Assembly (NCBI GenBank): GCA_020060545.1
Contig: JAGUZX010000131.1
Location: forward strand, 856-64,855
Source of the DNA: Desulfovibrio sp.
Lineage (GTDB): Bacteria; Bacillota; Dethiobacteria; DTU022
DNA: 64,000 nt
Direction of reading: 5' to 3'
Below are positions 30,798 to 63,660 of the stretch, one piece after another. Both the position numbers and the translations under genes were made by a program. Under the pieces are notes generated by a model. The model saw only the letters and a list, made by a program, of their open reading frames with translations, had not been told where the DNA came from and made no database searches. The stretch's first letter is position 1. Each line of letters opens with the position of its first letter.

Positions 30798-31241
30798 ATG
30801 GAAATCCGGCAGGCCCATGCCGCTGATGAAAACGCTGTGTGCCGGTTGTGGGAAACGCTCCTCGCTTTTTACCGCAAGGAAACCGGCCGCCCGGTATTGC
30901 AGCGCAGCTTCCGGTATGCCGTCGGGCATCCCCGCCAGGTGCGCATTTACGTGGCGGTAATGGACGGCGCTATCGCGGGGACCGCCAGCCTGCACCTGGG
31001 CCATTACTCAACCTGGAACGACAACTGGTACGGGCACATCGAAGATGTTGTGGTGGCCCCGGAGTTCCGCCGCCGGGGGGTGGGGCTCCGCTTGATCCGG
31101 CACCTGATCGCTGTTGCAGAAGAGGAAGGACTGGCCAGGCTGGAGTTGAACACCCTGGCAACGAATCACGCCGCCCGCCGGCTGTACGAACAGCTCGGCT
31201 TTAAAACCGATTCCGTAGTTTACGAGCTGCCGCTCAAATGA
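30798..31241 (+). CDS. GNAT-family N-acetyltransferase (147 aa)
   Basis: The ATG follows GGGGAGGG. MEIRQAHAADENAVCRLWE..., motif A HIEDVVVAPEFRRRGVGLRLI, then ARRLYEQLGF. The TGA stop is embedded in the first TGAACTT palindrome. Confidence 0.8.
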   Translation: MEIRQAHAADENAVCRLWETLLAFYRKETGRPVLQRSFRYAVGHPRQVRIYVAVMDGAIAGTASLHLGHYSTWNDNWYGHIEDVVVAPEFRRRGVGLRLIRHLIAVAEEEGLARLELNTLATNHAARRLYEQLGFKTDSVVYELPLK

Positions 31242-31304
31242 ACTTAGGCGCCGGGCGCTTAAGTTCATTAACTTAAAAACTTGGGTGCCAGGCACCTAAG
31301 TTCA
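31237..31304. repeat. Palindromic element family P (TGAACT-N2-4-GGYGCC half-sites), locus A with two adjacent palindromes
   Basis: AATGAACTTAGGCGCC-G-GGCGCTTAAGTTCATT, then AACTTGGGTGCC-A-GGCACCTAAGTTCA. Confidence 0.85.
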
Positions 31305-31327
31305 CCAAGATGAAAGGGGTGTTCAAG

Positions 31328-32566
31328 ATGCGTGATTACCGGGAAATACCGCTCTGGAAAGATGTCTCGCCGGAAGAATGGAACGACTGGCACTGGCAGG
31401 TGGCGCACCGGATTACTTCCCTCGAGGAGTTGAAGCAGGTGATCCGGCTGACCGCCGGGGAAGAGGAAGGGGTCAGGCAGTGCCTGCGGACGCTGCGTAT
31501 GGCCATCACTCCCTACTACGCCACCCTGATCGATCCCGCCGATACGGGCTGCCCCGTCCGGCGGCAGGCGGTGCCCACCGCTCACGAGCTGAACATGGCT
31601 GCGTCAGACATGGCCGATCCCCTGCATGAGGATGTTGATTCGCCGGTGCCCGGGTTGACCCACCGTTACCCCGACCGGGTGCTGCTGCTCCTGACCGACC
31701 AGTGCTCCATGTACTGCCGCCACTGCACCCGGCGCCGTCTGGCGGGTGTGACCGACCGGCCCAGGAGCAGGGAGCAGATCGACCGGGCCGTCGAATACGT
31801 GCGCCGGACACCGGCGGTGCGCGACGTGGTTCTGTCGGGAGGCGACGGGCTGCTGCTGGCCGACGAGATCCTGGAGCATGTCCTGCAGCAGCTGCGGGCC
31901 GTCCCGCACGTGGAGATTATCCGCTTCGGCAGCCGCACTCCCGTGGTCTTGCCCCAGCGGATCACCCCGGAACTGTGCCGGATGCTGTCCCGTTATCACC
32001 CGGTCTATGTGAACGTCCATTTCAACCATCCCAAGGAGATCACCGCCGCCTCGGCGGAGGCATGCGCCCGCCTGGCGGACGCCGGTGTCCCCCTGGGGAA
32101 CCAGACCGTGCTCCTGGCCGGGATCAACGACTGCCCCCGGGTGCTGAAAGAGCTGTGCCAGGGCCTGCTGAAGATCAGGGTACGCCCTTATTACCTCTTC
32201 CAGTGCGACCTTTCCCAGGGGATCGAGCATTTCCGGACCCCGGTGGCGGCGGGGATCCAGGCGATCGAATTCCTGCGCGGGCACACCTCCGGGCTGGCCG
32301 TGCCCACTTATGCCATCGACGCTCCCGGCGGGGGAGGGAAGATCCCGGTCATGCCGCAGTATCTCATCTCCCAGTCCGGTTCGCGGGTGGTGCTGCGGAA
32401 CTTTGAAGGCGGGCTCTATACTTACACCGAACCGGGCCATTACGTCGATCCCGACCAGCCGTGCGCGCTTTGCGGCGGCAGGCACCAGGAAAACGGGATC
32501 GGGGTTGCCGGGATGTTAAACGGCCAGGTGGTGGCGATGGAGCCAGTGCTGAAAAAAGAGAAATAA
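31328..32566 (+). CDS. kamA: Lysine 2,3-aminomutase (radical SAM/PLP)
   Basis: Near-colinear with my recollection of Clostridium subterminale LAM: WNDWHWQV, LRMAITPYY, SPVPGLTHRYPDRVLLL, CSMYCRHCTRR, RIGSRTPVVLPQRIT, NHPKEIT, GNQTVLL. The lysine-binding Asp positions are kept (QCDLS and IDAPGGGGK). The ATG at 31328 follows AAAGGGGTG. Confidence 0.9.
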   Translation: MRDYREIPLWKDVSPEEWNDWHWQVAHRITSLEELKQVIRLTAGEEEGVRQCLRTLRMAITPYYATLIDPADTGCPVRRQAVPTAHELNMAASDMADPLHEDVDSPVPGLTHRYPDRVLLLLTDQCSMYCRHCTRRRLAGVTDRPRSREQIDRAVEYVRRTPAVRDVVLSGGDGLLLADEILEHVLQQLRAVPHVEIIRFGSRTPVVLPQRITPELCRMLSRYHPVYVNVHFNHPKEITAASAEACARLADAGVPLGNQTVLLAGINDCPRVLKELCQGLLKIRVRPYYLFQCDLSQGIEHFRTPVAAGIQAIEFLRGHTSGLAVPTYAIDAPGGGGKIPVMPQYLISQSGSRVVLRNFEGGLYTYTEPGHYVDPDQPCALCGGRHQENGIGVAGMLNGQVVAMEPVLKKEK

Positions 32567-32569
32567 TGA

Positions 32570-32598
32570 TGAACCCGGGCGCCCGGCGCCCAAGTTCA
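32570..32598. repeat. Palindromic element family P, locus B
   Basis: TGAACCCGGGCGCC-C-GGCGCCCAAGTTCA, starting 4 nt after the kamA stop. Confidence 0.8.
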
Positions 32599-32665
32599 GA
32601 TCCGGTTGCGCCCAAAATTGGGCATACCGGAAGCGGAAACGGTGCCCTCAGCGCCCCTTTTTATG

Positions 32666-32681
32666 TGGTATGAAAATTGCT
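32666..32681 (+). promoter_or_regulatory. Sigma-54 (-24/-12) promoter upstream of the first MttB-family gene
   Basis: TGGTATGAAAATTGCT, whose first 15 nt (TGGTATGAAAATTGC) are identical to the core at 28811. GG-N10-GC spacing. It lies 76 nt upstream of the start at 32757. Confidence 0.7.
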
Positions 32682-32756
32682 CTTACAGCACTGCAGTACT
32701 GTAATCTATTGACGGAAGGCTGCCGCCGGGCAGCCCTCATCAAAGGAGCGTGATCA

Positions 32757-34226
32757 TTGATGTTTAAACGCAAGTTGAAGCCGGTGCGCTCGGTCCTGGA
32801 ATGCAAGGTTTTAAGCGAGCGGGACATCGTGAAGATCCACCAGGCCGCCCTGGAGGTGATGGAGGAAGCGGGCGTAAGGTTCCCGTCGGAGCGGGCACTG
32901 AACGTGCTGGAAGAGGCGGGATGCCCGGTGGATCGCCAAACCATGGTCGCCAAGCTGCCTTCCGGCCTGGTGATGGATTGCCTGCGCCGGGCCCCCTCCC
33001 AGTACCTGCTGGCCGGGCGGGATCCCAAAGATGATCTCTGGATCGACGATAAAACTTCCTATCTCTCCACCGACGGCTGCGCGGTTGATTTTTACGATAT
33101 CCGCACCGGCGAACTGCGCCGCTCCACCAAGCAGGATATCACCGACGCCTGCCGGGTGGCCGACTACCTGCCGGAGATTTCGTATATCTGGGGTCCTCCC
33201 GTCAGCGCGCAGGACGTCCCGGCGGCGGTGCGACCGCTGCACGAGATCGAGGCGAGCATGGATGGGACCACGATGCATATCCAGCCGGAGACGGTTATTT
33301 CCAGGACAATCGCCCGTTTTGCCCTGGAGATGGCCGCCGCGGTGGCCGGCGGCAAAGAGGCGCTGCGCAAGCGGCCGCTCTTTTCGTACATGCAGTGCGC
33401 CACCGATCCGCTCGGGCAGGACGGGGGGAGCCTGGAGGCGTCAATGGTGGCGGCGGAGTGGGGGATCCCCACCGGTTTCATGCCGATGCCGATGTCCTGC
33501 GCCACCGCTCCGGCCACTTTGGCCGGCAACCTGGTGGTGACGACGGTCGACGCGGTCAGCCCCCTGGTACTGATGCAGCTGGTTAACCCGGGCGCGCCGG
33601 TCTATTTCGCCGCGGCGCCCACGGCAATCGACCTGCAGACCGGCGGCTATACCGGCGGCGGGCCGGAAGACTTCCTCCTGGCGGCCGCCTTTAGCCAGAT
33701 CTGCCGCTTCTACCAGATCCCCCTGGCCATGGGCGCTTTCGCCACCGGGTCCAAGGAACCGGACTGGCAGGCGGCGGTGGATAACTGTTTTTCCGGCCTG
33801 TTGCCGGTCCTCACCCGGACCGCCATCCTCAACGGGGCGGGGACCTTGAACGGCTCCAAGATCTTCTCCCTGCAGGCTTTGATCATGGACGCCGAGATTT
33901 ACAGCATCATCGCGCGGGTTGCCGAAGGGATCGAGGTCAGCGACGAGACGCTGGCCGTGGAGCTGATCAAAAAAATCGGCCCTGGCGGCAACTTCCTCGC
34001 CGAGAAGCACACCCGGCAGCACATGAAAGAGATCTGGCGCCCCGTTGTTTACGACCGCAAGCCCTACGGGGCCTGGCTGGAGAGCGGCAAGCGAGGCGCT
34101 TTCGAAGAAGCCACTGAAAAAGCGCGCTGGATCCTGGAGAACCACGCGGTGCAGCCGCTCGAACCCGGGATCAAGCAAGAATTTTCCAGGATAATCAAGG
34201 CCGCTGAAAAAGAGCTGGCCGGTTAA
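32757..34226 (+). CDS. MttB-superfamily (trimethylamine methyltransferase family, COG5598) methyltransferase, non-pyrrolysine type; substrate unknown
   Basis: An uninterrupted 489-aa ORF of MttB length and architecture (..VLSERDIVKIHQAALEVMEEAGVRF.., C-terminal ..GPGGNFLAEKHTRQHM..). There is no in-frame TAG. A corrinoid protein gene follows 15 nt downstream. Confidence 0.8.
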   Translation: MMFKRKLKPVRSVLECKVLSERDIVKIHQAALEVMEEAGVRFPSERALNVLEEAGCPVDRQTMVAKLPSGLVMDCLRRAPSQYLLAGRDPKDDLWIDDKTSYLSTDGCAVDFYDIRTGELRRSTKQDITDACRVADYLPEISYIWGPPVSAQDVPAAVRPLHEIEASMDGTTMHIQPETVISRTIARFALEMAAAVAGGKEALRKRPLFSYMQCATDPLGQDGGSLEASMVAAEWGIPTGFMPMPMSCATAPATLAGNLVVTTVDAVSPLVLMQLVNPGAPVYFAAAPTAIDLQTGGYTGGGPEDFLLAAAFSQICRFYQIPLAMGAFATGSKEPDWQAAVDNCFSGLLPVLTRTAILNGAGTLNGSKIFSLQALIMDAEIYSIIARVAEGIEVSDETLAVELIKKIGPGGNFLAEKHTRQHMKEIWRPVVYDRKPYGAWLESGKRGAFEEATEKARWILENHAVQPLEPGIKQEFSRIIKAAEKELAG

Positions 34227-34241
34227 AGGGGGATCAAACAA

Positions 34242-34892
34242 ATGGAACAGGCGCAACTTTTTGCCAGGATGAAGTCAGCCGTACTGGAGGGGGAGATCGG
34301 CCTGGCCGCGGATCTGGCCCTTAACGCGCTGGAAATGGGCTTAAGCCCGCTCACCTGCATCGAGGAAGGCTACGTCCCCGGGATCAACGAGGTCGGCCGC
34401 CTCTTCGAAGCGGGCGAAATGTTTCTTCCCGAGCTGGTGGCGGCGGCCGAAGTGATGAAGGCGGCCCTCGCCGTCCTGGAGCCGGAGCTGCTGCGCCGGC
34501 AGGTATCGCGCGCGACCATGGGCAAGGTGGTGATCGGGACCATGTTCAACGATATCCACGATATCGGCAAGGATATGGTCGCCTCCATGCTTACCGCTTC
34601 GGGGTTCGACGTGGTCAACCTGGGGGTGAACGTACCCTGCGCCGCCTTCATCGACAAGGTCAGGGAGCTGCAGCCGGAGATCCTGGGGCTCTCGGCCTTG
34701 CTGACCACAACCATGCCCGAGCAAAAGACGGTCATCGAGGCGCTGCAGCGGGAAGGGCTGCGCGGGACGGTCAAAGTAATCGTCGGCGGGGCCCCGGTCA
34801 ACCGGCAGTGGGCCGACTCGATCGGCGCCGACGGCTTCGCCGAAAACGCCATCGAAGCGGTAAAGGTGGCCAAACGGCTGGTCGGCAAGTAA
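34242..34892 (+). CDS. Corrinoid (B12-binding) protein, MtbC/MttC/MtgC-like
   Basis: N-terminal helical cap (EEGYVPGINEVGRLFEAGEMFLPELV). B12-binding DxHxxG motif in GTMFNDIHDIGKDMV, then LSALLTTTM. Confidence 0.9.
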   Translation: MEQAQLFARMKSAVLEGEIGLAADLALNALEMGLSPLTCIEEGYVPGINEVGRLFEAGEMFLPELVAAAEVMKAALAVLEPELLRRQVSRATMGKVVIGTMFNDIHDIGKDMVASMLTASGFDVVNLGVNVPCAAFIDKVRELQPEILGLSALLTTTMPEQKTVIEALQREGLRGTVKVIVGGAPVNRQWADSIGADGFAENAIEAVKVAKRLVGK

Positions 34893-34964
34893 CATGCCGG
34901 GAGAGGCCGTAACCAATGCGCCGGGATTGCCAACATTTGCTTTGTGCTGGCTTGGGCCAAGTTT

Positions 34965-35033
34965 GGCACCTAGTGAACTGAAAAGTTCATTTGGTGCCTG
35001 GCACCAAATGAACTTTGGTTCCTTTGTTACTGG
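34965..35033. repeat. Palindromic element family P, locus C (contains a perfect 33-bp palindrome at 34983-35015)
   Basis: GGCACCTAGTGAACT-gaaa-AGTTCATTTGGTGCC-T-GGCACCAAATGAACTT, followed by a degenerate fourth arm. Confidence 0.85.
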
Positions 35034-35122
35034 CAAGGTAAGCCTCGCCCGCGGGCGGCGCATGCGCCGGCCCTACGGTTTAAGTGTAAAATACCCTGCA
35101 GCAAAAGGGAGGGTTTTAAGCG

Positions 35123-36604
35123 ATGGAGAAGTTCAGCTTCAAGGGCCAGCCGCGCCTGCGGCTCTTGTCCGACGAGCAGATCGAGCTGATGCACGAAAAA
35201 GCGCTCTATATCCTCGAGAACACCGGGGTCAAGTTCGAATCCGAGGAAGCGCTGAAAATTTTGAAAGATCACGGCGCGCAGGTTGACTTTACGCAAAAGA
35301 TCGCCCGGATCAAGCCGGAAATGGTGATCGACGCCGTGCAAAAGGCGCCCTCCGCCTTACGGCTGTACAACCGGGACGGGGAGCCCGCCGCTGATTTAAG
35401 CGGCAACAACGTCCACTTTGATCCCGGTTCGGCCGCGATCAAGTTCATGGAATCGGACGGCGTGACCGTCCGCCAGTCCAGGGCGGAAGACCTGGCCCGG
35501 ATCTCCAAAGTAAACGACGCCCTGGACAATATCGCCCTCCAGTCCACGGCTGTCGTGGCCTACGACGTGCCCAAGCTAATCGGCGACAGCTACCGGCTTT
35601 ACATTTTACTGAAGCACTCTCCCAAGGCGATCATCACTGGCGCCTTCAGCGTGCACGGCGTCGCCCACATGAGGGAGATGCTGGCCGCCGTGGCGGGGGG
35701 GTACGAGCGGCTGAGGGAGAAACCGGTGGCCGTTTTTGACATCTGCCCCTCCCCGCCGCTAAAATGGACGCACATCAGCGCGCAGAATATTATCGACTGC
35801 GCCCGTTTCGGCCTGCCCCTGGAGACGGTCTCCATGCCGATGCCCGGCGCCGCATCGCCGGTGACCCTTTCCGGGTCGATCCTGATCCATACCGCGGAGA
35901 CGCTGAGCGGCATCGTTCTGGCCCAATGTGTCAGCCCGGGCGCCCCGGTGGTGTACGGCGGGGCGCCGGTTCATTTTGACATGCGCTTCGGCACCACCCC
36001 TTTAAGCGCGATCGAGGCGACGATGATCGCTGCGGCCTACGCCCAGATGGGTAAATTTTACGGGATGCCCACCCACACCTACGCGGGCTTGAGCGACGCC
36101 AAGGTGGTCGACGCCCAGGCCGGCCTGGAAACGGGGATGAGCGGCGTCGTGGCCCAGCTGGCCGGGATTAACGTGATCTCTGGCGCCGGGGCCCTGGATT
36201 TCGTGAGCTGCATCAGCTTGGAGAAGCTGGTTATCGACAACGAGATCTGCGGGATGGCGCTGCGTCTGCACCGGGAAATCGACTGCTCGGCGGAAGCGAT
36301 GGCGGTTGAACTGGTGCGCGACCTCGGGCCGGGCGGGGACTACCTCGGCACGGAGCACACTTTCCGGTGGTTCAAGAAGGAGCCGTATATCACCTCCCCG
36401 GTAATCGACCGCCGCGATCGCGGCGGCTGGGTGGAGCAGGGCAGCAAGGATGCCTTTGCCCGCGCCAGGGAGAGAGTCTGTGAAATTGAGGGCGGCCACA
36501 GCCCCGTCCCTCTGGACGGGGAGCGGGCCGCCGCGCTGGACCGGGCCGCCTCACGTGTCATGGACGAACTGGGCATCGCCGCCCTCCCCCTCGGCCCCCG
36601 CTAG
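35123..36604 (+). CDS. MttB-superfamily methyltransferase, second diverged paralog, non-pyrrolysine; substrate unknown
   Basis: Uninterrupted 493-aa ORF (..LLSDEQIELMHEKALYILENTGVKF.., ..GPGGDYLGTEHTFRWF..). GGGAGGG acts as RBS. Confidence 0.8.
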   Translation: MEKFSFKGQPRLRLLSDEQIELMHEKALYILENTGVKFESEEALKILKDHGAQVDFTQKIARIKPEMVIDAVQKAPSALRLYNRDGEPAADLSGNNVHFDPGSAAIKFMESDGVTVRQSRAEDLARISKVNDALDNIALQSTAVVAYDVPKLIGDSYRLYILLKHSPKAIITGAFSVHGVAHMREMLAAVAGGYERLREKPVAVFDICPSPPLKWTHISAQNIIDCARFGLPLETVSMPMPGAASPVTLSGSILIHTAETLSGIVLAQCVSPGAPVVYGGAPVHFDMRFGTTPLSAIEATMIAAAYAQMGKFYGMPTHTYAGLSDAKVVDAQAGLETGMSGVVAQLAGINVISGAGALDFVSCISLEKLVIDNEICGMALRLHREIDCSAEAMAVELVRDLGPGGDYLGTEHTFRWFKKEPYITSPVIDRRDRGGWVEQGSKDAFARARERVCEIEGGHSPVPLDGERAAALDRAASRVMDELGIAALPLGPR

Positions 36605-36936
36605 ACTGGAAATTGGATGCAGGATGTTGGAAGTTGGCAAAGAGGTCGCATTTAAGCTGTAGAAGGGACGAGGTCTGCCACGCAAACCGGAGGCCAAAGG
36701 CCAGAGGCCGGAATCCGGAGGGCAAAGGCTTAGCGCAGGCGGAAAAGAAGGCTACGACCGCACAGATTAACGGAGCCGCACCACCGGCCGCCTCGTCTTT
36801 GAGGGGGAAGCGGGGCAGAGCTGAGTCACGGAGATGCGGCGGGAGTGGATTATATCGAATGATGCCGCACTCTTCCCGATTAAATAAGAGATCTCTTTTT
36901 CATCGATTATCGACCAAAGGAGGTTTTATCCGGAAG

Positions 36937-37569: not shown

Positions 37570-37599
37570 GGGGTCAGGCCTTAAATTGCGTCATATGCA

Positions 37600-37626
37600 G
37601 CCCCGGATATAACCCGGGGCTTTTTT
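37600..37626 (+). terminator. Intrinsic terminator after the second corrinoid gene
   Basis: GCCCCGG-atataa-CCGGGGC followed by TTTTTT. Confidence 0.8.
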
Positions 37627-37649
37627 GATTATAATGAATTTAGGTGTTT

Positions 37650-37720
37650 GGTACCGGAATGAACTAATAAGTTCATTTGGTGCCTGGCACCGGAGTGAAC
37701 TTTTTAGTTCGCTTGGGGCC
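37650..37720. repeat. Palindromic element family P, locus D (71-bp composite of four half-sites)
   Basis: GGTACCGGAATGAACTaataAGTTCATTTGGTGCC-T-GGCACCGGAGTGAACTttttAGTTCGCTTGGGGCC. Same 35+1+35 architecture as locus G. Confidence 0.85.
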
Positions 37721-37745
37721 AGACTACGGTGAAGAGGTGGCTTAC

Positions 37746-38660: not shown

Positions 38661-38662
38661 CT

Positions 38663-38919: not shown

Positions 38920-39936
38920 GTGTCCGTAACGGAGAGCCCGTTTCAAGCTGATACATGCCCCGAGTTGAAGGAGGTCGAAGCGACAATCAGGATGTCGCTG
39001 CAGACCCAGTCATCCGGCCTGCAGGAGATGATTGTGCATCTCCTGCAGGCCGGCGGCAAGAAGCTGCGCCCGCTGTTGGTCCTGCTTTGCGCCGGCCTGA
39101 GCGGCGGGGAAATGTACAGTATCAAACGGGTGGAGCTGCTGCGGGTTGCCGCGGCTGTAGAGATGATTCATACTGCTTCCCTGGTGCACGATGATATTAT
39201 CGACGGCGCTGCCTCGCGCCGCGGCAGGGAAACTCTCCACTTCCGCTGGGACACAAAAAAAGCTGTTTTGGCCGGCGATTTTCTGCTGGCCAGGGCTTTT
39301 GATCTTTTGTGCGGCCTGGAGCAAAAAGGATCGCTGCTGCCCCTGTTCGCCCGGTCGGTGGCCCTGATGTGCCAGGGAGAGATCAGGCAGCTGGCCGGCA
39401 ACTACTGCTGGGAAACCAGCGAAAAGAACTATTTCCATTTCAACTATCTCAAAACAGCGCAGTTCCTCGCCTCCTGCTGTGAGGCGGGGGCGACAGTGAT
39501 GAAGGCCGGGGAAGGGGAAATCAAGAACTTAAGGCGCTACGGCTTTTACCTGGGGCAGGCTTTCCAGATTGTCGACGACATCCTCGATTACACCGCGGAT
39601 CCCGTAAAACTTGGCAAGCCTGTAGGAAAAGATCTGAGGCAGGGGACGGTCACGCTGCCCTTAATCTACCTGCTTCGGGTGGATCACCGTTACCGCCACC
39701 TGCTGCGAGCCGCTTCGACCCGGCGCCCCGCCCTGGCCGCACACCTGCAAGAACAGGTGGATCGGGCGGTGCGTGCGAGCGGTGCGCTTCAGTATGCTTC
39801 CCGCAGGGCCGCCCGGGCCGGGGAAGCCGCCATTAATGCGCTGCAGCGTTTTCCGCCCACCCGCTCCCGGCAGCTGCTCAAGCAGATCGCCGAAGCGATT
39901 GCGGGCAGGGTTGCCTTCGTCAAAGGGCAACAATAA
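38920..39936 (+). CDS. Polyprenyl diphosphate synthase (HepT/heptaprenyl- or octaprenyl-type trans-IPPS)
   Basis: LLQAGGKKLRP, first DDxxD in ASLVHDDIIDG, and second DDxxD in AFQIVDDILDY..GKPVGKDL. The start is uncertain (GTG 38920 after AGGTGG). The track's N-terminal 69 aa are unsupported. Confidence 0.8.
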   Translation: MSVTESPFQADTCPELKEVEATIRMSLQTQSSGLQEMIVHLLQAGGKKLRPLLVLLCAGLSGGEMYSIKRVELLRVAAAVEMIHTASLVHDDIIDGAASRRGRETLHFRWDTKKAVLAGDFLLARAFDLLCGLEQKGSLLPLFARSVALMCQGEIRQLAGNYCWETSEKNYFHFNYLKTAQFLASCCEAGATVMKAGEGEIKNLRRYGFYLGQAFQIVDDILDYTADPVKLGKPVGKDLRQGTVTLPLIYLLRVDHRYRHLLRAASTRRPALAAHLQEQVDRAVRASGALQYASRRAARAGEAAINALQRFPPTRSRQLLKQIAEAIAGRVAFVKGQQ

Positions 39937-39974
39937 CTTAATAAATGGTGCCTGGCACCATTTATTAAGTTATT
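39932..39974. repeat. Palindromic element family P, locus E (43-bp perfect palindrome, AT-rich arm variant)
   Basis: AATAACTTAATAAATGGTGCC-T-GGCACCATTTATTAAGTTATT. The TAA stop of the preceding gene lies inside the left arm. It is the exact reverse complement of locus H. Confidence 0.9.
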
Positions 39975-44072: not shown

Positions 44073-44179
44073 GCTTCACACTCCGCTGTCGATGATTGGA
44101 AGAAAATAGCCGCACCGGCAGCGATGCGGCTGCGTTCTTACCTGAACTCTGGCGCCCGGCGCCCGGGCTCATGGTGACG

Positions 44180-49347: not shown

Positions 49348-49402
49348 TGAAACTAAAGTGCCAGGCGCCGGCGTGAACTTGGGCGCCTGGCACCTCAGTT
49401 CA
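49348..49402. repeat. Palindromic element family P, locus F
   Basis: ...AAAGTGCC-A-GGCGCCGGCGTGAACTTGGGCGCC-T-GGCACCTCAGTTCA. Confidence 0.75.
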
Positions 49403-50585: not shown

Positions 50586-50612
50586 CAGTTGGGGACGGGG
50601 CAATTTTGTCAC
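50582..50612. repeat. 31-bp element family T, copy 2
   Basis: GTGACAGTTGGGGACGGGGCAATTTTGTCAC. The azlD TGA stop lies inside it. Confidence 0.85.
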
Positions 50613-53053: not shown

Positions 53054-53067
53054 GGGAGGTGTTTCGC

Positions 53068-54720: not shown

Positions 54721-54738
54721 AAGGTTAGGGTCTGGATG

Positions 54739-54841
54739 TCAAGGGAACCGTCCTTTGATATAGATAGAAAATATATATCAAGAGAACCGTCCCCTTGATA
54801 TACGTCCCCTTGATATATATCAAGAGAACCGTCCCCATGAT
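54739..54841. repeat. Hairpin repeat family H, array of 3.5 units in the hutU-methyltransferase spacer
   Basis: TCAAGGGAACCGTCCTTTGA; TATCAAGAGAACCGTCCCCTTGATA; CGTCCCCTTGATAT (half unit); TATCAAGAGAACCGTCCCCATGAT. Confidence 0.8.
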
Positions 54842-54864
54842 CTATTTTGGACAGGAGTGATCAA

Positions 54865-56659: not shown

Positions 56660-57562
56660 ATGGCTGAAATGATTCAGTGTGTCCCCAATTTTAGCGAAGG
56701 GCGCCGCGGCGAAGTGGTCGAAGCCCTGGCGGACCAGATCAGGGCGGCCGGGGGGGTAAAGCTCCTGGATTATTCTCTCGACTGCGATCACAACCGCTCC
56801 GTTTTTACTTTCGCCGGCGGGCGAGGGGAGGTATTGGAAGCCGCTTTCCGCGCCGCCCGGAAAGCGGCCGAGCTGATCGATCTGCGCCGGCATCGCGGCG
56901 GGCACCCCCGCATGGGGGCGGTGGATGTCATCCCCCTTGTCCCGGTTTCAGGCGTGACCATGGCCGAATGCGCCGCCGCGGCGCGGGAACTGGGCCGGAG
57001 AATCGGTGACGAGCTGGCTATACCGGTTTTTCTCTACGAGGAAGCCGCCTCCGCGCCGGAAAGGCGGAGCTTGGCTGCCCTCCGGGCGGGCGAATTCGAG
57101 GGGCTGCAGGCGGCGATCGACGGGGGCAGGAAACCCGATTTCGGTCCCGCCAGGGTTCACCCCACGGCGGGAGCGGTGGCGGTGGGCGCCAGGAGGCCGC
57201 TGGTGGCGTTTAACGTCAACCTGAACACCGCGGATGTCGCCGTGGCCAAAAAGATCGCCGCGGCGGTGCGGGAAAGCAGCGGCGGGCTGGCCAATGTCAG
57301 GGCCCTGGGCGTCTACCTCGCGGAACAGCAGAAAGCCCAGGTCAGTATGAACCTGGTCAACTGCGACGCCACCCCGCTCCACCGTGTCGCCGAGTTGGTC
57401 CGGGTGGAAGCGGCCCGCTACGGGGTCGCCGTGGCGGAAACCGAAGTGGTGGGGCTGATCCCCCAGCAGTATCTCCTTGACGCCGCCGCCTATTACCTGC
57501 AGTTGAACCGCTTCACCCCTGACCAGGTCCTTGAAAAGCGGATTGCCGGGCAAACATTATAG
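56660..57562 (+). CDS. ftcD: Glutamate formimidoyltransferase
   Basis: The ATG follows GGAGGGG. MAEMIQCVPNFSEGRR..V...... D.DHNRSV.T..G, HPRMGA.DV.P. 300 aa. The track's 68-aa N-terminal extension is rejected. Confidence 0.9.
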   Translation: MAEMIQCVPNFSEGRRGEVVEALADQIRAAGGVKLLDYSLDCDHNRSVFTFAGGRGEVLEAAFRAARKAAELIDLRRHRGGHPRMGAVDVIPLVPVSGVTMAECAAAARELGRRIGDELAIPVFLYEEAASAPERRSLAALRAGEFEGLQAAIDGGRKPDFGPARVHPTAGAVAVGARRPLVAFNVNLNTADVAVAKKIAAAVRESSGGLANVRALGVYLAEQQKAQVSMNLVNCDATPLHRVAELVRVEAARYGVAVAETEVVGLIPQQYLLDAAAYYLQLNRFTPDQVLEKRIAGQTL

Positions 57563-57809
57563 TATGCAGGAATGCAGGAATTACAGGGACAGGGACAAGT
57601 TATACCCGGGCCGCATAACCGGTGCGACTTACTTTTGAACTGTCAGAGGGTTATAGCCACGCTGCGCCCGTGCATGCAGGTGAGACTTGTCCCGGTTGAT
57701 AGGTGTGAGCTTTACAGCTTTCAAGTCCCCTAGCCGTAGACGGCCTGCCGCCCGGCCTAAACAGAGGGGTTAAGCGAAGGTAAACAATTTTACCGGAGGA
57801 GGGCCTGCC

Positions 57810-59066
57810 GTGATCGAAGCGGATCTTTTCGTGAAAAACGCGTCCCAGCTCTTAACCCTGGCCGGGTCCAGCGAGACGCCCAAAAGGGGCGCCGCCCTGG
57901 CGGAACTGGGTGTCATCCGGGGGGGTGCTGTCGCCGCCCGGGCCGGGGAGATAAAGGCGGTGGGGAGAACGGCTGATTTGGAAAGTGAAATCAGCCTGCT
58001 GACCGGCGGGTGCGCCTACGATGCTTCCGGGAAGGTGGTCATGCCCTGTTTTGTCGAGCCGCACACCCACCTTGTTTTTGCCGGCAGCCGCCAGGACGAA
58101 TTTGTACAGCGCCTGCAGGGTAAAAGCTACCTGAAGATCCTCCAGGCCGGGGGCGGCATTTTGAACACCGTCAGGGCCACCGCCTCCGCCGGCCAGGACG
58201 AGCTGCTTTCCGCCGCGCGCCGCCGCCTGGATCTGTTCGCCCGTCACGGGGTTGGGACAGTGGAAATAAAAAGCGGTTACAGCCTGACGGTAGAAGGCGA
58301 ACTGCGCCTGCTGCGGGTGGTGCAGGAGCTGAGCCGGACTCACCCCCTGGACCTGGTCCCGACTTTCATGGGGGCGCACGCCTTTCCGCCGGTGTACCGT
58401 TCCCGCGAGGACGATTACGTCGATCTGGTAGCGGGGGTGATGATCCCCCGGGTGGCGGAAGAGAAGCTGGCCCGTTTCTGCGATGTTTTCTGCGATGTCG
58501 GGGTATTTACCCGTGAACAGGCCTGGCGCATCCTCACAGCGGGCAAAAACCACGGCCTGCAGCCGAAAATTCACGCCGATGAGCTGGCCTCATTCGGCGG
58601 GGCGGAGCTGGCGGCGGAAGTGAGAGCGGTTTCAGCGGATCATCTCCTGAAAGTATCGGGGGAGGGGATCGGGCGGCTGGCCCGGGCCGGGGTTGTGGCG
58701 GTCCTCCTGCCTGGCACCGCTTTTTTCCTTAACGAAGGTTTCGCCCCGGCCAGGCAAATGATCCGTGAAGGGGTGGCGGTGGCCCTTTCCACCGACTGCA
58801 ACCCGGGCTCCTCTCCGACCGAGGCGATCCACCTGATGCTGACCCTGGCCTGCCTGAAGATGAAGATGCTCCCAGCGGAAACCGTCAGCGCCGCCACGAT
58901 CAACGCCGCGCACGCCGTCGGGATGGCCCACCTGGTTGGGAGCCTGGAAAAAGGCAAACAGGCCGATATCCTTGTTCTGGACGCTCCCGACTATAACTAT
59001 ATCCCCTACCACTACGGCACCAGCCTGGTGGAGGCGGTTTTCAAAAAAGGCCGGCGCATAATTTAG
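57810..59066 (+). CDS. hutI: Imidazolonepropionase
   Basis: GTG after GGAGGAGGG. FVEPHTHLVFAG, KSGYSL, IHADE, SADHL and TDCNPGSSP blocks. Confidence 0.9.
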   Translation: MIEADLFVKNASQLLTLAGSSETPKRGAALAELGVIRGGAVAARAGEIKAVGRTADLESEISLLTGGCAYDASGKVVMPCFVEPHTHLVFAGSRQDEFVQRLQGKSYLKILQAGGGILNTVRATASAGQDELLSAARRRLDLFARHGVGTVEIKSGYSLTVEGELRLLRVVQELSRTHPLDLVPTFMGAHAFPPVYRSREDDYVDLVAGVMIPRVAEEKLARFCDVFCDVGVFTREQAWRILTAGKNHGLQPKIHADELASFGGAELAAEVRAVSADHLLKVSGEGIGRLARAGVVAVLLPGTAFFLNEGFAPARQMIREGVAVALSTDCNPGSSPTEAIHLMLTLACLKMKMLPAETVSAATINAAHAVGMAHLVGSLEKGKQADILVLDAPDYNYIPYHYGTSLVEAVFKKGRRII

Positions 59067-59124
59067 AAGTGAGAAGTGAGATGTTGGAAGTGAGAATCCC
59101 ACCCTCGGGGAGAAGCAACGCATT

Positions 59125-59152
59125 GTAGGGGCGCAGCACGCTGCGCCCCTAC
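59125..59152 (+). terminator. GC-rich hairpin after hutI (terminator-like)
   Basis: GTAGGGGCGCAGC-ac-GCTGCGCCCCTAC, a 13-bp stem. A TTTTT run occurs 13 nt further on. Confidence 0.5.
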
Positions 59153-59250
59153 GGGTGGGGGCGACTTTTTACCGGGTTGAGTATTCACGCTGGCGAAGAG
59201 CCTTTCCCTTTTTCCCTTTGTGTCTACAAAAGGAACGTTAAGGACCGTCC

Positions 59251-59826
59251 CTAGGTGTCCCTCCCCAGGTGCGCAAGCAGCTGCCGCTTTAAATCTGCCA
59301 GCGCGGCAGCGCAGGTGTCAAAAGCCCGGGCGGTTTCTGCTTGCCACCAGGCGGATCGTTCCGGGTTGGCGCCGTCGACGGCGCTGCCGCCGATGCCCGC
59401 CGCGCTCAACTGCTTCAGCAGCGCTTCCCGGCCTTCCTGCTCCGCCCGGTAACGGATTGCGGCAAGGCTGTCGCGGTGGCGCTGCCGGATCGACTCGGCG
59501 GCGGCGGCAAGGCTGCCGCTTTCTGCGCCGCCGTCCCGGCAGCGGTTCAGGGCCGCTGCGGCCCGTTCGATGTTGCCCGGATCCGCTCCCGCCACGATTG
59601 CCCTCAAGAAAGACTGCCTTGCTTTTGCGGCCGCTTCCTGCGGGTAGCGGTTGATGCTTTCCAGCACCTGCTCCAGCGTTGCTTTTTCCGACAGAAAGGA
59701 ACCGGCCAGGGCTTCCGCCGCCCGGATATATTTCTGCTGTTCATATGCCAGCGCCTCCCTGCCTCCGGCGGCCAGGTGGGCCGTCCGTTCCATGGCCAGT
59801 TCGCGGGACGATTTAATTTTAACCAT
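59251..59826 (-). CDS. Hypothetical helical protein (191 aa)
   Basis: The ATG at 59826 follows GGAGGTGAGG. MVKIKSSRELAMERTAHLAAGGREALAYEQQKYIRAAE... It is Ala/Arg-rich, and I recognise no family. Confidence 0.5.
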   Translation of the reverse strand: MVKIKSSRELAMERTAHLAAGGREALAYEQQKYIRAAEALAGSFLSEKATLEQVLESINRYPQEAAAKARQSFLRAIVAGADPGNIERAAAALNRCRDGGAESGSLAAAAESIRQRHRDSLAAIRYRAEQEGREALLKQLSAAGIGGSAVDGANPERSAWWQAETARAFDTCAAALADLKRQLLAHLGRDT

Positions 59827-59905
59827 CCTTTTCCTCACCTCCGGAAATATGATATCATAACGTTGATGTTTTGGGCTATGGCTGATCATAGAAGGAGGTC
59901 GCAGT

Positions 59906-60601
59906 ATGCGCATCAATGACCGGGTTTACGCTTATCCCTGGCGGGGCCGGGGCAACAACTGTAACAGCTATCTCTACAAGGGGAAGAAAACGGTGCTGTT
60001 CGATCCCGGCCACATTTACAACGAATTCCGTGAAAGCTGCCTCGAAGCCCTGGCGCGGCAGATGGCCGGCGACGGGTTCAGCCTTGAGGATATCGAACTG
60101 ATTTTATGCACGCACGCCCACCCCGATCATGTCGAGGCCGCCGGGATTGTGCGCGAGCGAAGCGGCGCCATGGTGGCGCTTCACCGGCAGGACGAATTTA
60201 TCCTCGAGGCGATCGAGCGGCGCTACGCCTCCGCCGCCGGCAAGGAGATCCCCGCCCTGCGGCCTGATTTCTATTTGCGCGAAGGGGACCTTGACCTGGG
60301 CCTGGAACAACCGGAGCAGATCCGCGTGATCCATACCCCCGGTCATTCGCCCGGCTCATCCTGCTTTTACCTGCCGCAGCAAAAAGCGCTCATCACCGGC
60401 GACACCGTTTTCGTCAACAGTATCGGCAGGTTCGACCTGCCCGGCGGAGACGAAGCCGTGCTCGGCGAAAGTGTCGCCAAGCTGGCCGGGCTCGGCGAAG
60501 TGGAGCTTCTCCTGCCGGGCCACATGGGCCATCTCGCCGGGGCGGAAGAGGTCCGGCAAAACTTTGCCCGGATCCGGCGCTTCTTCTTCGGCGAAAAGTA
60601 A
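59906..60601 (+). CDS. MBL-fold metallo-hydrolase
   Basis: CTHAHPDHVEAAG, TPGHSPGS and GDTVF motifs. Confidence 0.85.
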   Translation: MRINDRVYAYPWRGRGNNCNSYLYKGKKTVLFDPGHIYNEFRESCLEALARQMAGDGFSLEDIELILCTHAHPDHVEAAGIVRERSGAMVALHRQDEFILEAIERRYASAAGKEIPALRPDFYLREGDLDLGLEQPEQIRVIHTPGHSPGSSCFYLPQQKALITGDTVFVNSIGRFDLPGGDEAVLGESVAKLAGLGEVELLLPGHMGHLAGAEEVRQNFARIRRFFFGEK

Positions 60602-60607
60602 ACCCCA

Positions 60608-60678
60608 GGCACCAAGATGAGCTAAAAAGTTCATTCGGTGCCAGGCACCAAGATGAACTTTTTAGCTCATTCGGTACC
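60608..60678. repeat. Palindromic element family P, locus G (71-bp composite of four half-sites)
   Basis: GGCACCAAGATGAGCTaaaaAGTTCATTCGGTGCC-A-GGCACCAAGATGAACTttttAGCTCATTCGGTACC. It starts 7 nt after the MBL gene stop. Confidence 0.9.
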
Positions 60679-60717
60679 GGGACCGCGGCAAAAGGTGAAT
60701 AAACAGGAGGTTGTCAT

Positions 60718-61539
60718 GTGGACGCGTATCGCAAAATAATACTTTACGGGATCCTGTGCCTTGTTTGGGCGGCCGTTGTTCCCGGTTGCACGTGGTTTAA
60801 GGGAGGCGGGGCAACGAAGGATCTGCAGGAGTTCGCCAACGAGAGCGGGCCGGGGGTGTTTTACCGCCAGGCTGAACTGCCGCCGGCGGTGCAAGAGTGG
60901 GTGGAGAACGCCGCCCGCAACCTTTACCTCGGGCAGAGCCGGGTGTTCGGGGATTACCGTTATATCCTGGTCACCTACGGCCCGAAACCGACCGGCGGCT
61001 ACGCTGTCCAAGTTACCGGTGTCATCGCCGGGCCGCACGCAATAACGGTAGCCGTCAAGTTTAAAGACCCTCTCCCCGGGGAGATCGTGACTGAAGCTTT
61101 TACCTACCCTTACGACCTGGTCCTGATCCCCGCCGTCAACCTGCCGGTTGAGTTTGCCGGACACGGCGCTCAAGAGCATGTGATGGCTCTGTACGGGATC
61201 GATTCCCTGGCCCCGATCGTTGCCGCGTCAGCCTGGATCAAGGTTTTCGAGCCGGCTCCCGGCGCCGCCGTTACCGGCATCGTTCGGGTAAGCGGGGTGG
61301 CCTCGGTTTTCGAAGGGTTGATTAGCTACCGCATCGTCAGAAACGGTGCGGTGCTGGCGGCGGATCAGATCATGGCCGGGATGGGGGACTGGTACTATTT
61401 CGAGGAAGAGATCCCCCTGGCGGCGATTGTCCCCGGTATAACATCACCCCTGGCGTGCGTGCTGGAGCTGTTCACGATCAGCCCCAGAGACGGAACCGAG
61501 GCGGAAAAAGTTTCGATCCCCGTTACGCTCAAACCTTAA
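60718..61539 (+). CDS. Lipoprotein with a PrcB-C-like domain and a Gmad2 Ig-like domain
   Basis: GTG lies 7 nt after AGGAGG. Lipobox VVPGC. GPKPTGGYAVQVTGV...PYDLVLIP is PrcB_C-like. The C-terminal segment IRVSGVASVFEGLISYRI is Gmad2-like. Confidence 0.6.
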   Translation: MDAYRKIILYGILCLVWAAVVPGCTWFKGGGATKDLQEFANESGPGVFYRQAELPPAVQEWVENAARNLYLGQSRVFGDYRYILVTYGPKPTGGYAVQVTGVIAGPHAITVAVKFKDPLPGEIVTEAFTYPYDLVLIPAVNLPVEFAGHGAQEHVMALYGIDSLAPIVAASAWIKVFEPAPGAAVTGIVRVSGVASVFEGLISYRIVRNGAVLAADQIMAGMGDWYYFEEEIPLAAIVPGITSPLACVLELFTISPRDGTEAEKVSIPVTLKP

Positions 61540-61763
61540 GCGCTTTTCCAATGATCGCATTTTCCAGGCTGGCCGTTACCTCGAAGAAGCGGGTGACCGC
61601 TTTTTTTTTACTTGCCAAGCGATGTTTTGTTTAAAAGACAGGTGCTTGATTGACGGTGACTGATCAAACTCCGCCAAAGTCCTGCCGGCCGTCACAGCCC
61701 GGATAAGTTTTTTCCTGCGGCGAAAAATAAAAGCAAATCTTATGCAAAGCGGGGTATGGCATT

Positions 61764-63560
61764 ATGCGTTACGGTTACCTGTTGTGGGGTGTTCTGGCCG
61801 GCGTTGTCGGCGCCGTGGCGGGGGCGCTAATTTTGTGGGGTTCATGGCTTTTGCCGGTGCTGGGGCTGCTGCTGACCAGGGTCAGCTTGCTGCACGGTTT
61901 CTTCAGCCTGGCGGTCTTTGGCGCGCTGGGAGGGCTGCTCTACGCGGCGGTACTCCGGCGCCGCCGGCTCAGGCGGGCGGCGACGATCCTGGCCGGAGCC
62001 GCCCTCGGGGCTGTGCTCTGGCTGGGCGGGGCGCTGATCGTGATCCCGATGCTCCTCGGATTTACGCCCCAGGTGCAGAGCCCCCTCGATCATTGGGTGC
62101 CGCTCGTGGCGTTTGTCTTTTACGGCATCATTGTCGCCCTCCTCTACAGCCGGTGGAGCCTGAAGCAGTCCCGCGCCCGGATTTATTACGCGATCGGGCT
62201 GCTCGCGGCGGCGGCGATTCTGACGCCTTTCATGCTCCGGGCCGCCGTGAGCACGGAACCGGAAGCGCTGCAGCTGCCCGAAGGCTACCGGGCCGAAGTG
62301 GTGGCCAAGGGCTTTACCTTCCCTACTTCCATCGCGGTGGGGCCAAACGGGTTAATCTACGTGGCCGAATCCGGTTTTTCCTACGGGCCGAAAACCACCA
62401 CCGCCCGCATCCTGCTTGTTGCACCGGACGGCGCCGTCCGGGAGGTGGCCCGGGATTTTGAGGGGCCGCTGAACGGGCTGGCGCTGCGGGACAACCGCCT
62501 CTACGTTTCCCACCGCGGTAAGATCACGGAACTCAACCTGGATAGTGGCAAGCGCAGGGACCTGGTGACCGGCCTCCCCTCCCTGGGGGACCACCAAAAC
62601 AACGACCTGGTTTTCGGCGCCGACGGGGCGCTCTACTTCGGGCAGGGCAGCGCCACCAACGCCGGGGTGGTCGGCTCGGACAATTTCGTCTATGCCTGGA
62701 CGGACCGCTACCCCGACTTTCACGACCGGCCTTCACGCAGCTTTACCCTCACCGGCGAGAACTATGAGTCACTGGATCTGGGTACGCCTGATCCCGCCGA
62801 TACAAAAACCACCGGTGCCTTCGCTCCCTTCGGGACGAAAAGGGGACGCGGCGAAAAGGTTTCAGGGGCGGTCCCGGGCAGCGGGGCCGTCCACCGGTTG
62901 GATCTGGCTACGGGAGAGCTGTCTGTATACGCCGACGGCTTGCGTAACCCTTACGGCCTGGCCGTGGACGGCGGGGGCGCCATCTACGCCTCCAACCTGG
63001 GTTACGACGACCGGGGGGTCAGGGCGGTTAAAAGCTCGCCGGACTGGCTGGTCAGGCTGCGCGAAGGGGCCTGGTACGGCTGGCCCGACTATGCCGGCAC
63101 GATCCCCTTGACTGAACCGCTTTTCGCCTCCGGCAGGGGAGTCAACCGCCGGCCGCTACTTTTCGACCCCCCGCCGGTGGAGCCGCCGCTGGCCACCTTC
63201 CCGCCGCACTATTCGCCGATGAAGCTGGCCGCCGTTCCCGGCGCATTCCCGGCCCGGGGTTTGCTAGTCGCCATATTCGGCGACGGACAGCCCCTGACCG
63301 AAGACCTGGACCGGCTTGTGCCCACCGGCGTGCTCAAAGTCGACCCCGCCAGCGGCCGGTTTGATTGGTTTCTCCGGAACAAGGGCGGGGCGCGGGCCGG
63401 GCGCACGGGCAACGGCCTGAAAAGAGCGATCGATGTCAAGTTCAGCCCCGACGGTACCGCGCTCTACCTGCTGGACTTCGGGGTGATGGAGTTTACCGAT
63501 ATGGCCCCCAACGCCATCCCCCGCACCGGCGTGCTCTGGAAAATCATCCCATCAGAATGA
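61764..63560 (+). CDS. Membrane-anchored PQQ-dependent sugar dehydrogenase (SGDH)/sorbosone dehydrogenase-like beta-propeller protein
   Basis: About 5 N-terminal TM helices, then LPEGYRAEVVAKGFTFPTSIAVGPNGLIYVAE...GDHQNNDLVFGADGALYFGQGS...LRNPYGLAV, which are typical SGDH blades. Confidence 0.65.
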   Translation: MRYGYLLWGVLAGVVGAVAGALILWGSWLLPVLGLLLTRVSLLHGFFSLAVFGALGGLLYAAVLRRRRLRRAATILAGAALGAVLWLGGALIVIPMLLGFTPQVQSPLDHWVPLVAFVFYGIIVALLYSRWSLKQSRARIYYAIGLLAAAAILTPFMLRAAVSTEPEALQLPEGYRAEVVAKGFTFPTSIAVGPNGLIYVAESGFSYGPKTTTARILLVAPDGAVREVARDFEGPLNGLALRDNRLYVSHRGKITELNLDSGKRRDLVTGLPSLGDHQNNDLVFGADGALYFGQGSATNAGVVGSDNFVYAWTDRYPDFHDRPSRSFTLTGENYESLDLGTPDPADTKTTGAFAPFGTKRGRGEKVSGAVPGSGAVHRLDLATGELSVYADGLRNPYGLAVDGGGAIYASNLGYDDRGVRAVKSSPDWLVRLREGAWYGWPDYAGTIPLTEPLFASGRGVNRRPLLFDPPPVEPPLATFPPHYSPMKLAAVPGAFPARGLLVAIFGDGQPLTEDLDRLVPTGVLKVDPASGRFDWFLRNKGGARAGRTGNGLKRAIDVKFSPDGTALYLLDFGVMEFTDMAPNAIPRTGVLWKIIPSE

Positions 63561-63617
63561 AGGGATCCCGCCGCGGCCGCCAGCAATAGTTAATGCCTTG
63601 GACATTTCAAAGGGCTC

Positions 63618-63660
63618 AATAACTTAATAAATGGTGCCAGGCACCATTTATTAAGTTATT
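63618..63660. repeat. Palindromic element family P, locus H (43-bp perfect palindrome)
   Basis: AATAACTTAATAAATGGTGCC-A-GGCACCATTTATTAAGTTATT, the exact reverse complement of locus E (39932-39974). Confidence 0.9.

Follow-up and report, generated by a model that had tools for sequence, protein, structure and literature searches.

The 64,000-nucleotide stretch of the Desulfovibrio sp. draft genome considered here (GenBank assembly GCA_020060545.1, contig JAGUZX010000131.1, positions 856 to 64,855; “the window” hereafter, or C125:856-64855 in the contig numbering used below) carries a series of composite palindromes, which are very probably copies of a non-autonomous palindromic repeat family of the REP (repetitive extragenic palindrome) or REPIN kind, spread most likely in trans by a REP-associated tyrosine transposase (RAYT) encoded at C23:101252-102082 of the same genome. 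A sequence-only reading of the window had listed eight such loci, all of which are present at the positions collected in Table 1, and had left the choice between REP-like elements, RNA-stabilising 3' hairpins, protein-binding sites and recombination scars at cassette boundaries; the first of these is borne out by a genome-wide, intergenic and 3'-end-biased family, accompanied by a RAYT gene that is itself bracketed by the repeats.

A repeat family with an invariant core

The source genome (G000) is a draft of 2.52 Mb in 135 contigs, with a G+C content of 58% and a completeness of 95%. A count of the motif throughout it, as proposed by the sequence-only reading, shows that the repeats are by no means confined to the window, as the elements, once clustered, form a family of 91 loci. 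The exact 13-bp core, GGTGCC-W-GGCACC (GGTGCCWGGCACC), is the most abundant 13-mer of the genome, occurring in 99 copies against about 0.2 expected (our own estimate from base composition); the reversed pattern, serving as a control, is found 0 times in the same genome, and most of the 60 related genomes compared (G-numbered below) have only 0–1 copies of the core.

The arms next to almost all cores fall into two families. Type A arms read AAGTTCATTT / AAATGAACTT, the half-element being aaaAAGTTCATTt followed by GGTGCC, i.e., AGTTCA-N3-GGTGCC (99 halves), and such elements frequently form doublets with a core-to-core period of 35–37 nt and TGAACT-TTTC/GAAA-AGTTCA between the cores. The type B arm, AATAACTTAATAAAT followed by GGTGCC, is present in 39–41 halves, depending on which of two classifiers is employed, and occurs in both orientations, the reverse-complemented arm (TTATTAAGTTAT followed by GGTGCC) being present in 28 halves. 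Halves of the two types hardly ever share an exact core (0 pairs according to the first classifier and one flipped-A/B2 pair according to the second). One 43-bp sequence is found unchanged at nine loci, and many others differ by 1–2 nt. At type-B cores, the two arm orientations pair as random assortment predicts, with 13–14 palindromic cores of one kind, 7 of the other and 12–13 mixed ones, versus 12, 5.6 and 16.4 expected, respectively.

The TGAACT-N2-4-GGYGCC half-site, from which the sequence-only reading had assembled the family, is indeed there (six matches in the window against 0.09 expected, with 0 of 100 shuffles reaching six, and 20 matches genome-wide), but represents a minority flipped form, found in just 9 of the 194 halves at exact cores and, within the window, concentrated in degenerate GGCGCC-type copies. 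Likewise, not every core is W-centred, contrary to what had been described: those at 32578 and 44151 read GGCGCC-C-GGCGCC, and the first palindrome of the 31237 locus reads GGCGCC-G-GGCGCT.

Some unusual arrangements were also seen among the copies: at C28:33377-33462, three cores lie in tandem at a 36–37-nt spacing, with arms that belong to neither type A nor type B (GTCAAGTTATGTCAAG), and at C18:6774-6832 an 8-nt inverted repeat (ATCACCGT ... ACGGTGAT) surrounds a type-B copy, which looks as though it had landed in the loop of a hairpin already there. Both CCWGG, a Dcm/Vsr-type site, and GGYRCC are part of the core sequence, probably by coincidence.

The repeat-bracketed transposase gene

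Among the five Y1_Tnp genes of the genome, a search for a RAYT/TnpA-REP-like gene, another suggestion of the sequence-only reading, singled out C23:101252-102082, a single intact gene encoding 277 aa and the only one of the five to be bracketed by core doublets. The left type-A doublet ends approximately 50 nt before the ATG, and the right one starts no more than 8 nt from the stop codon. The best flanking 16-mer of this gene has 30 copies in the genome (99 for the core), and its product is at most 40% identical to its paralogues. The other four RAYT-like genes of the genome are flanked by different repeats with GGGGWSAS-like motifs or near-variants thereof, which also lie beside several such genes of the relatives.

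REP_Tyr_transpos (REP-associated tyrosine transposase) is the best NCBIfam match for each of the four Y1_Tnp proteins scanned (the truncated C84 copy being the fifth), the C23 protein matching it with an E-value of 7.5e-17, which lies below the model cut-off of 80 bits. In an alignment of 17 sequences, H66-x-H68 (the HuH motif), the catalytic tyrosine Y125 and N129 and P130 (the class-2 signature Y---NP) are all invariant; the catalytic motifs are intact. When solved structures were searched with the single C23 sequence, no match was obtained, and a profile of the 17-sequence alignment was needed to reach the best one, E. coli TnpA-REP (4ER8, E = 7.6e-8; ISDra2 TnpA, E = 0.01). The C-terminal tail of about 130 aa shows a weak match to DnaA-C only (NCBIfam E = 0.0012, residues 187–266). 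Pfam found no helix-turn-helix (HTH) domain in the C23 protein; an HTH-like block is conserved at the C-terminus in the 17-sequence alignment, and a core-bracketed gammaproteobacterial homologue matches HTH_23 with an E-value of 8.5e-5.

A doublet of a second, unrelated family (ATATATCAAGAGAACCGTCCCCTTGATATAT) is found at 54770-54848 of the window, its 16-mer ATCAAGAGAACCGTCC having 40 copies genome-wide and the repeat also flanking the RAYT-like gene at C6:116-892. A third abundant repeat, ACGGGGCAATTTTGTCAC (39 copies genome-wide), is represented once in the window, at 50595-50612, and resembles the GACGGGGTTATTGACAAC repeats flanking the RAYT-like genes C84:19189-19602 and C23:53202-53963. 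The genome thus seems to hold at least three such families, two of which, plus a look-alike of the third, flank RAYT-like genes. Furthermore, GGGGTCAGACCTTGAA(A/T)TGTGAATTAA, which fits the published GGGGWSAS motif, is present at C16:12690-12720, C121:3370-3400 and C121:10060-10090, beside type-A repeats and the C16 RAYT-like gene.

Co-occurrence, synteny and empty sites among relatives

At least 20 cores are found in only three of the 60 relatives, namely G029 (55) and G015 (36), which belong to one genus of the same family as G000, and G038 (20), which belongs to another family. The very same G029 (50% identity) and G015 (47%, with one internal stop) are alone in having a close and full-length homologue of the C23 protein, the next best being 35% identical, and in both genomes the RAYT homologue is bracketed by core doublets; G038 has a more distant homologue (32%), which is bracketed by core doublets. 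In G000, G015 and G029 the RAYT module occupies the same place, between purM and purN of the purM-purN-purH operon and on the opposite strand, whereas purM and purN are adjacent in thirteen other relatives, which represent an empty site for the whole module.

The arms, on the other hand, are wholly different from species to species (AAGTTCATTT in G000, TAGTAAAC in G029, TTACTCCCCCCC in G015 and TTCCCCCA in G038), while the core is identical in all four. The repeats at the transposase gene have therefore turned over together with the dispersed copies, something that is difficult to account for without activity of the system after the separation of these lineages.

A somewhat different situation is seen in G014, a genome with one exact core, in which the purM-purN spacer (L185:1300-1520) contains two copies of a variant repeat (each reading AAAGTTGAC followed by GTGCCAGGCACC), which also flanks the RAYT-like gene of this genome (L012). 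Counts of the exact 13-mer would accordingly underestimate related families.

The same comparison bears on the notion that the palindromes are recombination scars at the boundaries of the gene cassettes of the sigma-54/MttB region. Among the 30-kb bins of the large contigs, repeat density does peak in the second half of the window (5 loci versus a mean of 0.68), and next to the RAYT gene a 296-aa gene, found there only in G000, lies between two repeat loci. Still, the order GNAT-kamA-mttB is the same in G022, G017, G015 and G005, where the spacers contain no core (the copy at 32570, for instance, is missing from the orthologous kamA-mttB spacers), and the same repeats are present at about 80 other, unrelated loci. 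As the modules share this order in relatives lacking the repeats, they were evidently adjacent before the repeats arrived, the latter being later insertions; the comparison of orthologous loci, which the sequence-only reading had itself proposed, thus led to the scar explanation being rejected for the GNAT-kamA-mttB junctions, and it is scarcely credible in general. As for the 296-aa gene (C23 ~102148-103038; L006:2397-3287), the C-terminal part of its product is GNAT-like, as judged by eye; it is situated between the right doublet of the RAYT gene and the repeat at the end of purM, is not at the same spot in G029 and G015, and may have been gained or lost between the two repeats.

The core in other phyla

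Tandem cores are not restricted to this order. A scan of one genome per species for two cores 18–40 nt apart, irrespective of their arms, returned at least 118 stretches, against a chance expectation of about 0.01, and those listed come from Bacillaceae, Clostridia, Actinomycetota, Gamma-, Beta- and Alphaproteobacteria, Acidobacteriota, Planctomycetota, Spirochaetota, Cyanobacteriota, Elusimicrobiota and others. The G+C content of the genomes listed ranges from 33% to 74%, and each lineage has arms of its own; resemblance to a DnaA box is seen in the arms of some actinobacterial families (GTTATTCAC) but not in those of G000. RAYT homologues lie beside the cores in 3 of the listed stretches. 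Among 24 distant core-bearing genomes, at least 15, from about six phyla, have a RAYT homologue bracketed by the identical core, a proportion that speaks of association and not of generality, as these genomes were picked by searching for the core itself. Eleven RAYT-like loci taken as controls from genomes lacking the family have no exact core.

Position relative to genes and marks of insertion

The intergenic and 3'-end biases raised by the sequence-only reading were assessed against our own gene calls (a simple periodic Markov model yielding 1965 genes and 80% coding sequence). Both are pronounced: just 5 of the 91 loci lie inside called genes (94% intergenic; p = 2e-53), and the loci lie a median of 13.5 nt from the closest 3' end, versus 377 nt for random intergenic positions (p = 3e-29), with 61% of the loci, compared to 6% under the null, being at most 20 nt from a 3' end. 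Tandem, convergent and divergent spacers house 54, 20 and 3 loci, respectively, where 52, 10 and 15 would be expected (p = 6e-5), which amounts to a five-fold depletion from divergent, i.e., promoter, spacers.

A stop codon is contained in, or abuts, 23 of the 91 loci. In the window, where the loci had been placed within about 0–80 nt of a stop codon, the measured distance to the preceding stop is −5 to 80 nt, and the stops at 31239-31241 and 39934-39936 do lie inside palindromes, as had been pointed out. Orthologues of the GNAT gene in the relatives stop at the equivalent codon position without any repeat, the TGAACT arm at 31237 supplying the stop exactly there. The claim that the loci always follow plus-strand genes, by contrast, reflects gene orientation in the window, for the 3'-end bias holds genome-wide for genes on both strands. 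At C23 ~103079-103131 (L006:3328-3380), the last nine residues of PurM (KVHLVPGTK) and its TGA stop are encoded by a type-A repeat.

These positions matter for the possibility that the 13-bp palindrome is an operator of a dimeric regulator or a nucleoid protein, the loci then forming a regulon or serving to structure the chromosome. Dimer sites typically show perfect dyad symmetry such as that of the core, which moreover stays the same where its flanks vary, and E. coli REPs are established binding sites for gyrase and IHF. An operator, however, would hardly be depleted five-fold from divergent promoter spacers and located at gene 3' ends, nor would it be expected to come in about 100 copies with 15-nt arms conserved to the base, to be patchily present among close relatives and to be tightly linked to a transposase gene, so this alternative is considered most unlikely. 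Of the protein-binding sites proposed by the sequence-only reading, what remains is their presumed role as transposase substrates, the transcription factor operator being contradicted by the depletion from divergent spacers; secondary binding of host proteins to the repeats may nevertheless take place.

No target-site duplication was found at the nine perfect type-B copies, seven of which have no flanking direct repeat and two of which have one of 1–2 nt. This is one of the points that make it extremely improbable that the repeats are miniature inverted-repeat transposable elements, i.e., deletion derivatives of a conventional DDE-type insertion sequence (IS): they are, admittedly, short, palindromic (with inverted-repeat ends), dispersed and intergenic, yet no full-length IS with such ends was seen, and the only gene consistently bracketed by them encodes a Y1/HUH enzyme. 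Within 8 nt on either side of the loci, GTAG is found at 2 and CGTC at 3 of the 91, which is the chance level, so there is no REP tag. When the core is read along the coding strand of the gene upstream, its central base is A in 55 and T in 27 copies (p = 0.003, with doublets not being independent), which hints at strand-specific insertion; for the loop (TTTC versus GAAA), neither orientation is significantly preferred with respect to that gene (16 versus 9, p = 0.23).

Possible consequences at the RNA level

The RNA folds predicted for the window copies have energies of about −17 to −43 kcal/mol (z −3.4 to −9.3), while no Rfam family was matched anywhere in the 64-kb window at gathering thresholds. 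Even a loose terminator scan of these copies passed only 34982-35016 and, on the minus strand, 32598-32570. The absence of U-tracts, on the strength of which the sequence-only reading had set the loci apart from classical terminators, is true of the window but not of the genome, throughout which a T-run follows 40 of 111 (36%) type-A right arms and none of the type-B ones; even so, the repeats do not qualify as intrinsic terminators. A canonical one (AGCCCCGG-ATATAAC-CCGGGGCT, then TTTTTT) is found at 37599-37626, after the second corrinoid-protein gene and directly before the doublet at 37650.

Could the family then consist of transcription terminators or stabilisers of mRNA 3' ends, whose similarity is kept by selection and whose link to a transposase is incidental? 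Their median position 13.5 nt past stops, the enrichment between convergent genes, the very stable hairpins predicted and the T-runs after 40 of the 111 type-A right arms (arms with A-runs and T-runs resembling bidirectional terminators) would all suit such a role. Function alone, though, does not require the same 43 bp at nine loci and near-copies 1–2 nt off at others; the orthologous spacers of relatives do without the repeats, most window copies lack a U-tract, the copy at 37650 is already preceded by a canonical terminator, and the repeats bracket RAYT genes in four lineages of the order and in at least 15 distant genomes. As a full account this is very unlikely, and a terminator or stabiliser role may be a secondary consequence of the repeats. 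In E. coli, REPs shield upstream mRNA from 3' exonucleases and can, if situated near a stop codon, influence the termination of translation. By analogy, stabilisation of transcripts by a 3' hairpin is a plausible side-effect of the present repeats, any effect at the RNA level being a matter of prediction from folds and position.

Proposed mechanism and the points that weigh against it

Spread of the repeats could be pictured as follows. The C23 enzyme, a single-copy RAYT-type Y1/HUH tyrosine transposase, would spread copies in trans, its substrate, if TnpA-REP and IS200/IS605 enzymes are a guide, being single-stranded DNA with the palindrome folded as a hairpin. In such a hairpin, the invariant core would form the apical 5-bp stem and a C-W-G loop and, in doublets, the base of the inter-core hairpin, and it may well serve as the determinant that the RAYT recognises or cleaves. 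Cutting and rejoining via a 5'-phosphotyrosine link would leave no target duplication. Copies do accumulate directly 3' of genes, often replacing the stop codon or the last codons, and the very stable hairpin resulting at the mRNA 3' end would probably act as a barrier to 3' exonucleases or as a partial terminator.

Several points weigh against this reading. That the C23 RAYT mobilises the repeats is something we infer from comparisons of sequence, as opposed to direct evidence of transposition, binding or cleavage. In the 95%-complete draft, no cognate RAYT flanked by type-B arms was found, so mobilisation of type-B copies by the C23 enzyme rests on the shared core. The mixed type-B forms (X-core-X and X'-core-X') have arms that are unable to pair into a hairpin and are, nevertheless, as common as random assortment would have them, which a simple model with the hairpin as the mobile unit does not explain. 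In a small and poorly resolved tree built from 42 RAYT-like proteins, those bracketed by the core do not come out as a single clade (10 changes versus a shuffled mean of 13, with 27 of 500 shuffles as low), and a single origin for them is neither claimed nor excluded. The association across phyla has the selection bias mentioned above, and the gene calls behind the positional statistics are reliable for stops and unreliable for starts.

The loci of the window

The individual loci are presented in Table 1, together with a ninth, degenerate copy (44143-44171) that was missing from the sequence-only list. Their flanking genes are those named by that reading, i.e., a GNAT gene, a kamA-like gene, MttB and corrinoid-protein genes (twice), and radical SAM and polyprenyl synthase genes. 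The copies at 39932 and 63618 are, as had been noticed, perfect palindromes of 21+1+21 nt and exact reverse complements of each other, the central T/A being the only difference between them. Those at 37650 and 60608 do have the same architecture, in which one W links two hairpin units of 35 nt each, but they differ in sequence.

Table 1. Repeat loci of the window, with their structure, gene context and predicted RNA folding
Position	Structure	Gene context	Predicted RNA fold (kcal/mol; z)
31237-31304	Composite: degenerate flipped-arm palindrome AATGAACTTAGGCGCC-G-GGCGCTTAAGTTCATT (31237-31269), then exact-core unit (core 31284-31296)	TGA of the first arm (31239-31241) is the GNAT stop	−37.8; −7.6
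32570-32598	Degenerate: TGAACC-CGG-GCGCC-C-GGCGC-CCAAGTTCA	Begins 3 nt past the kamA-like stop	−16.8; −3.4
34965-35016	Type A: half-core hairpin unit (GGCACC..TGAACTGAAAAGTTCA..GGTGCC), full core and right arm	72 nt past the stop of the corrinoid-protein gene	−26; −5.8
37650-37720	Type-A doublet: two 35-nt hairpin units joined at core 37679-37691	Stop of the second corrinoid-protein gene 80 nt upstream; closely preceded by the canonical terminator 37599-37626	−42.7; −7.6
39932-39974	Type-B 43-bp perfect palindrome, AATAACTTAATAAAT-GGTGCC-T-GGCACC-ATTTATTAAGTTATT, 100% complementary	TAA inside the palindrome (39934-39936) is the stop of the polyprenyl synthase gene	−24.7; −8.6
44143-44171	Degenerate candidate: TGAACTCT-GGCGCC-C-GGCGCC-CGGGCTCA; variant core the same as at 32578	Uncertain	
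49348-49402	Degenerate composite: AGTGCCAGGCGCC, then TGAACTTG-GGCGCC-T-GGCACC-TCAGTTCA	57 nt past a stop	−32; −4.1
60608-60678	Type-A doublet (35+1+35 nt), core 60637-60649	6 nt past the stop of a metallo-beta-lactamase-fold gene	−40.1; −9.3
63618-63660	Type-B 43-bp perfect palindrome, central A; reverse complement of the 39932 copy	57 nt past a stop	−24.9; −9.0

A further element of the region, TGGTATGAAAATTGC, occurs twice in the window (32666-32680 and 28811-28825), and the kamA-mttB spacers of G022 and G017 have TTGGCA(T/C)AAT(T/A)ATTGCT at the same place; it looks like a conserved sigma-54-type −24/−12 promoter ahead of mttB, which would be independent of the palindromes.

Relation to known systems and significance

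The closest parallels seem to be the REP/BIME-TnpA-REP system of E. coli and the REPIN-RAYT systems, or REPtrons, of Pseudomonas (PMC3333891, PMC3479197, PMC3116915), with which the present one shares short extragenic palindromes in tens to hundreds of copies, often as doublets and 3' of genes, no target duplication, and a repeat-bracketed, single-copy Y1/HUH transposase with Y---NP at a fixed, vertically inherited locus. It differs from them in having no GTAG/CGTC tag at the foot of the hairpin, in that the conserved part is a central 13-bp perfect palindrome and not a 5' tetranucleotide, in its longer transposase (277 aa versus 165 aa for 4ER8) with a putative HTH-like tail at the C-terminus, and in its host, a Bacillota anaerobe and not a proteobacterium. 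With IS200/IS605 elements (IS608, ISDra2), it would share Y1/HUH chemistry, recognition of a subterminal single-strand hairpin, the lack of target duplication and an expected strand bias (here 55:27 at the central base), whereas the gene is single-copy and syntenic instead of multi-copy, the repeats are dispersed without it, and the profile fits TnpA-REP far better than ISDra2 TnpA.

The name TIRYT was given to RAYT-like genes whose flanking inverted repeats are not REPs, the resulting TIRtrons having a GGGGWSAS (GGGG[AT][CG]A[CG]) motif and, in some cases, moderately abundant repeat families (Di Nocera et al. 2013, PMC3733652). TIRYTs were later equated with the HTH-bearing TnpA-Y1 subclass 2.1, the second largest one, near whose genes no REP-like sequences turned up, whether looked for automatically or by hand (Quentin et al. 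2018, PMC6006769), and they are probably the same as the Group 1 RAYTs, the largest group of Bertels et al. 2017 (PMC5581495), for which a flanking 16-mer has only about 12 genome copies. The C23 protein looks TIRYT-like, as judged by its features: it, too, is RAYT-like and long, ends in a tail that may be of the HTH or DnaA-C kind (a weak match in this case) and has inverted repeats on either side of its gene, and the genome holds several divergent paralogues, the other four having GGGGWSAS-type flanks. Unlike in TIRtrons, the C23 flanks are true palindromic doublets of a family of about 91 loci, with the motif GGTGCCWGGCACC in place of GGGGWSAS, and in the literature searched the 13-mer core was not found in a bacterial context. 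The system works like a REPtron, yet has neither the GTAG tag of classical REPs nor the GGGGWSAS motif of the TIRtrons described.

A broader proposition, for which we would put the chances at about even, is that GGTGCC-W-GGCACC is what a pan-bacterial, HTH-bearing lineage of Y1 transposases (TIRYT / subclass 2.1 / Group 1) recognises or cleaves, a conserved core that the enzyme would fix, while the arms would evolve freely and turn over with the gene-flanking copies, arm-plus-half-core modules being cut and rejoined mid-core. Such cutting and rejoining, or else flipping of the 14-nt arm segment, would explain the random assortment of type-B arms, both being proposals.

To our knowledge, REP-RAYT, the textbook case of a domesticated transposase with a repeat population of its own, has been characterised almost only in Proteobacteria and only in its GTAG-tagged form. 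For the HTH-bearing group (TIRYT / subclass 2.1 / Group 1), which is the most widespread one, the literature reports neither a REP partner nor a function. The genome analysed here offers what looks like a clean example of such an enzyme together with a large and evidently recent repeat family, and thereby a concrete and testable substrate for this enzyme class. The repeats also matter for annotation, as they rewrite the ends of genes, supplying the stops of the GNAT and polyprenyl synthase genes and the 9-residue C-terminal tail of PurM, and for assembly, which they break.

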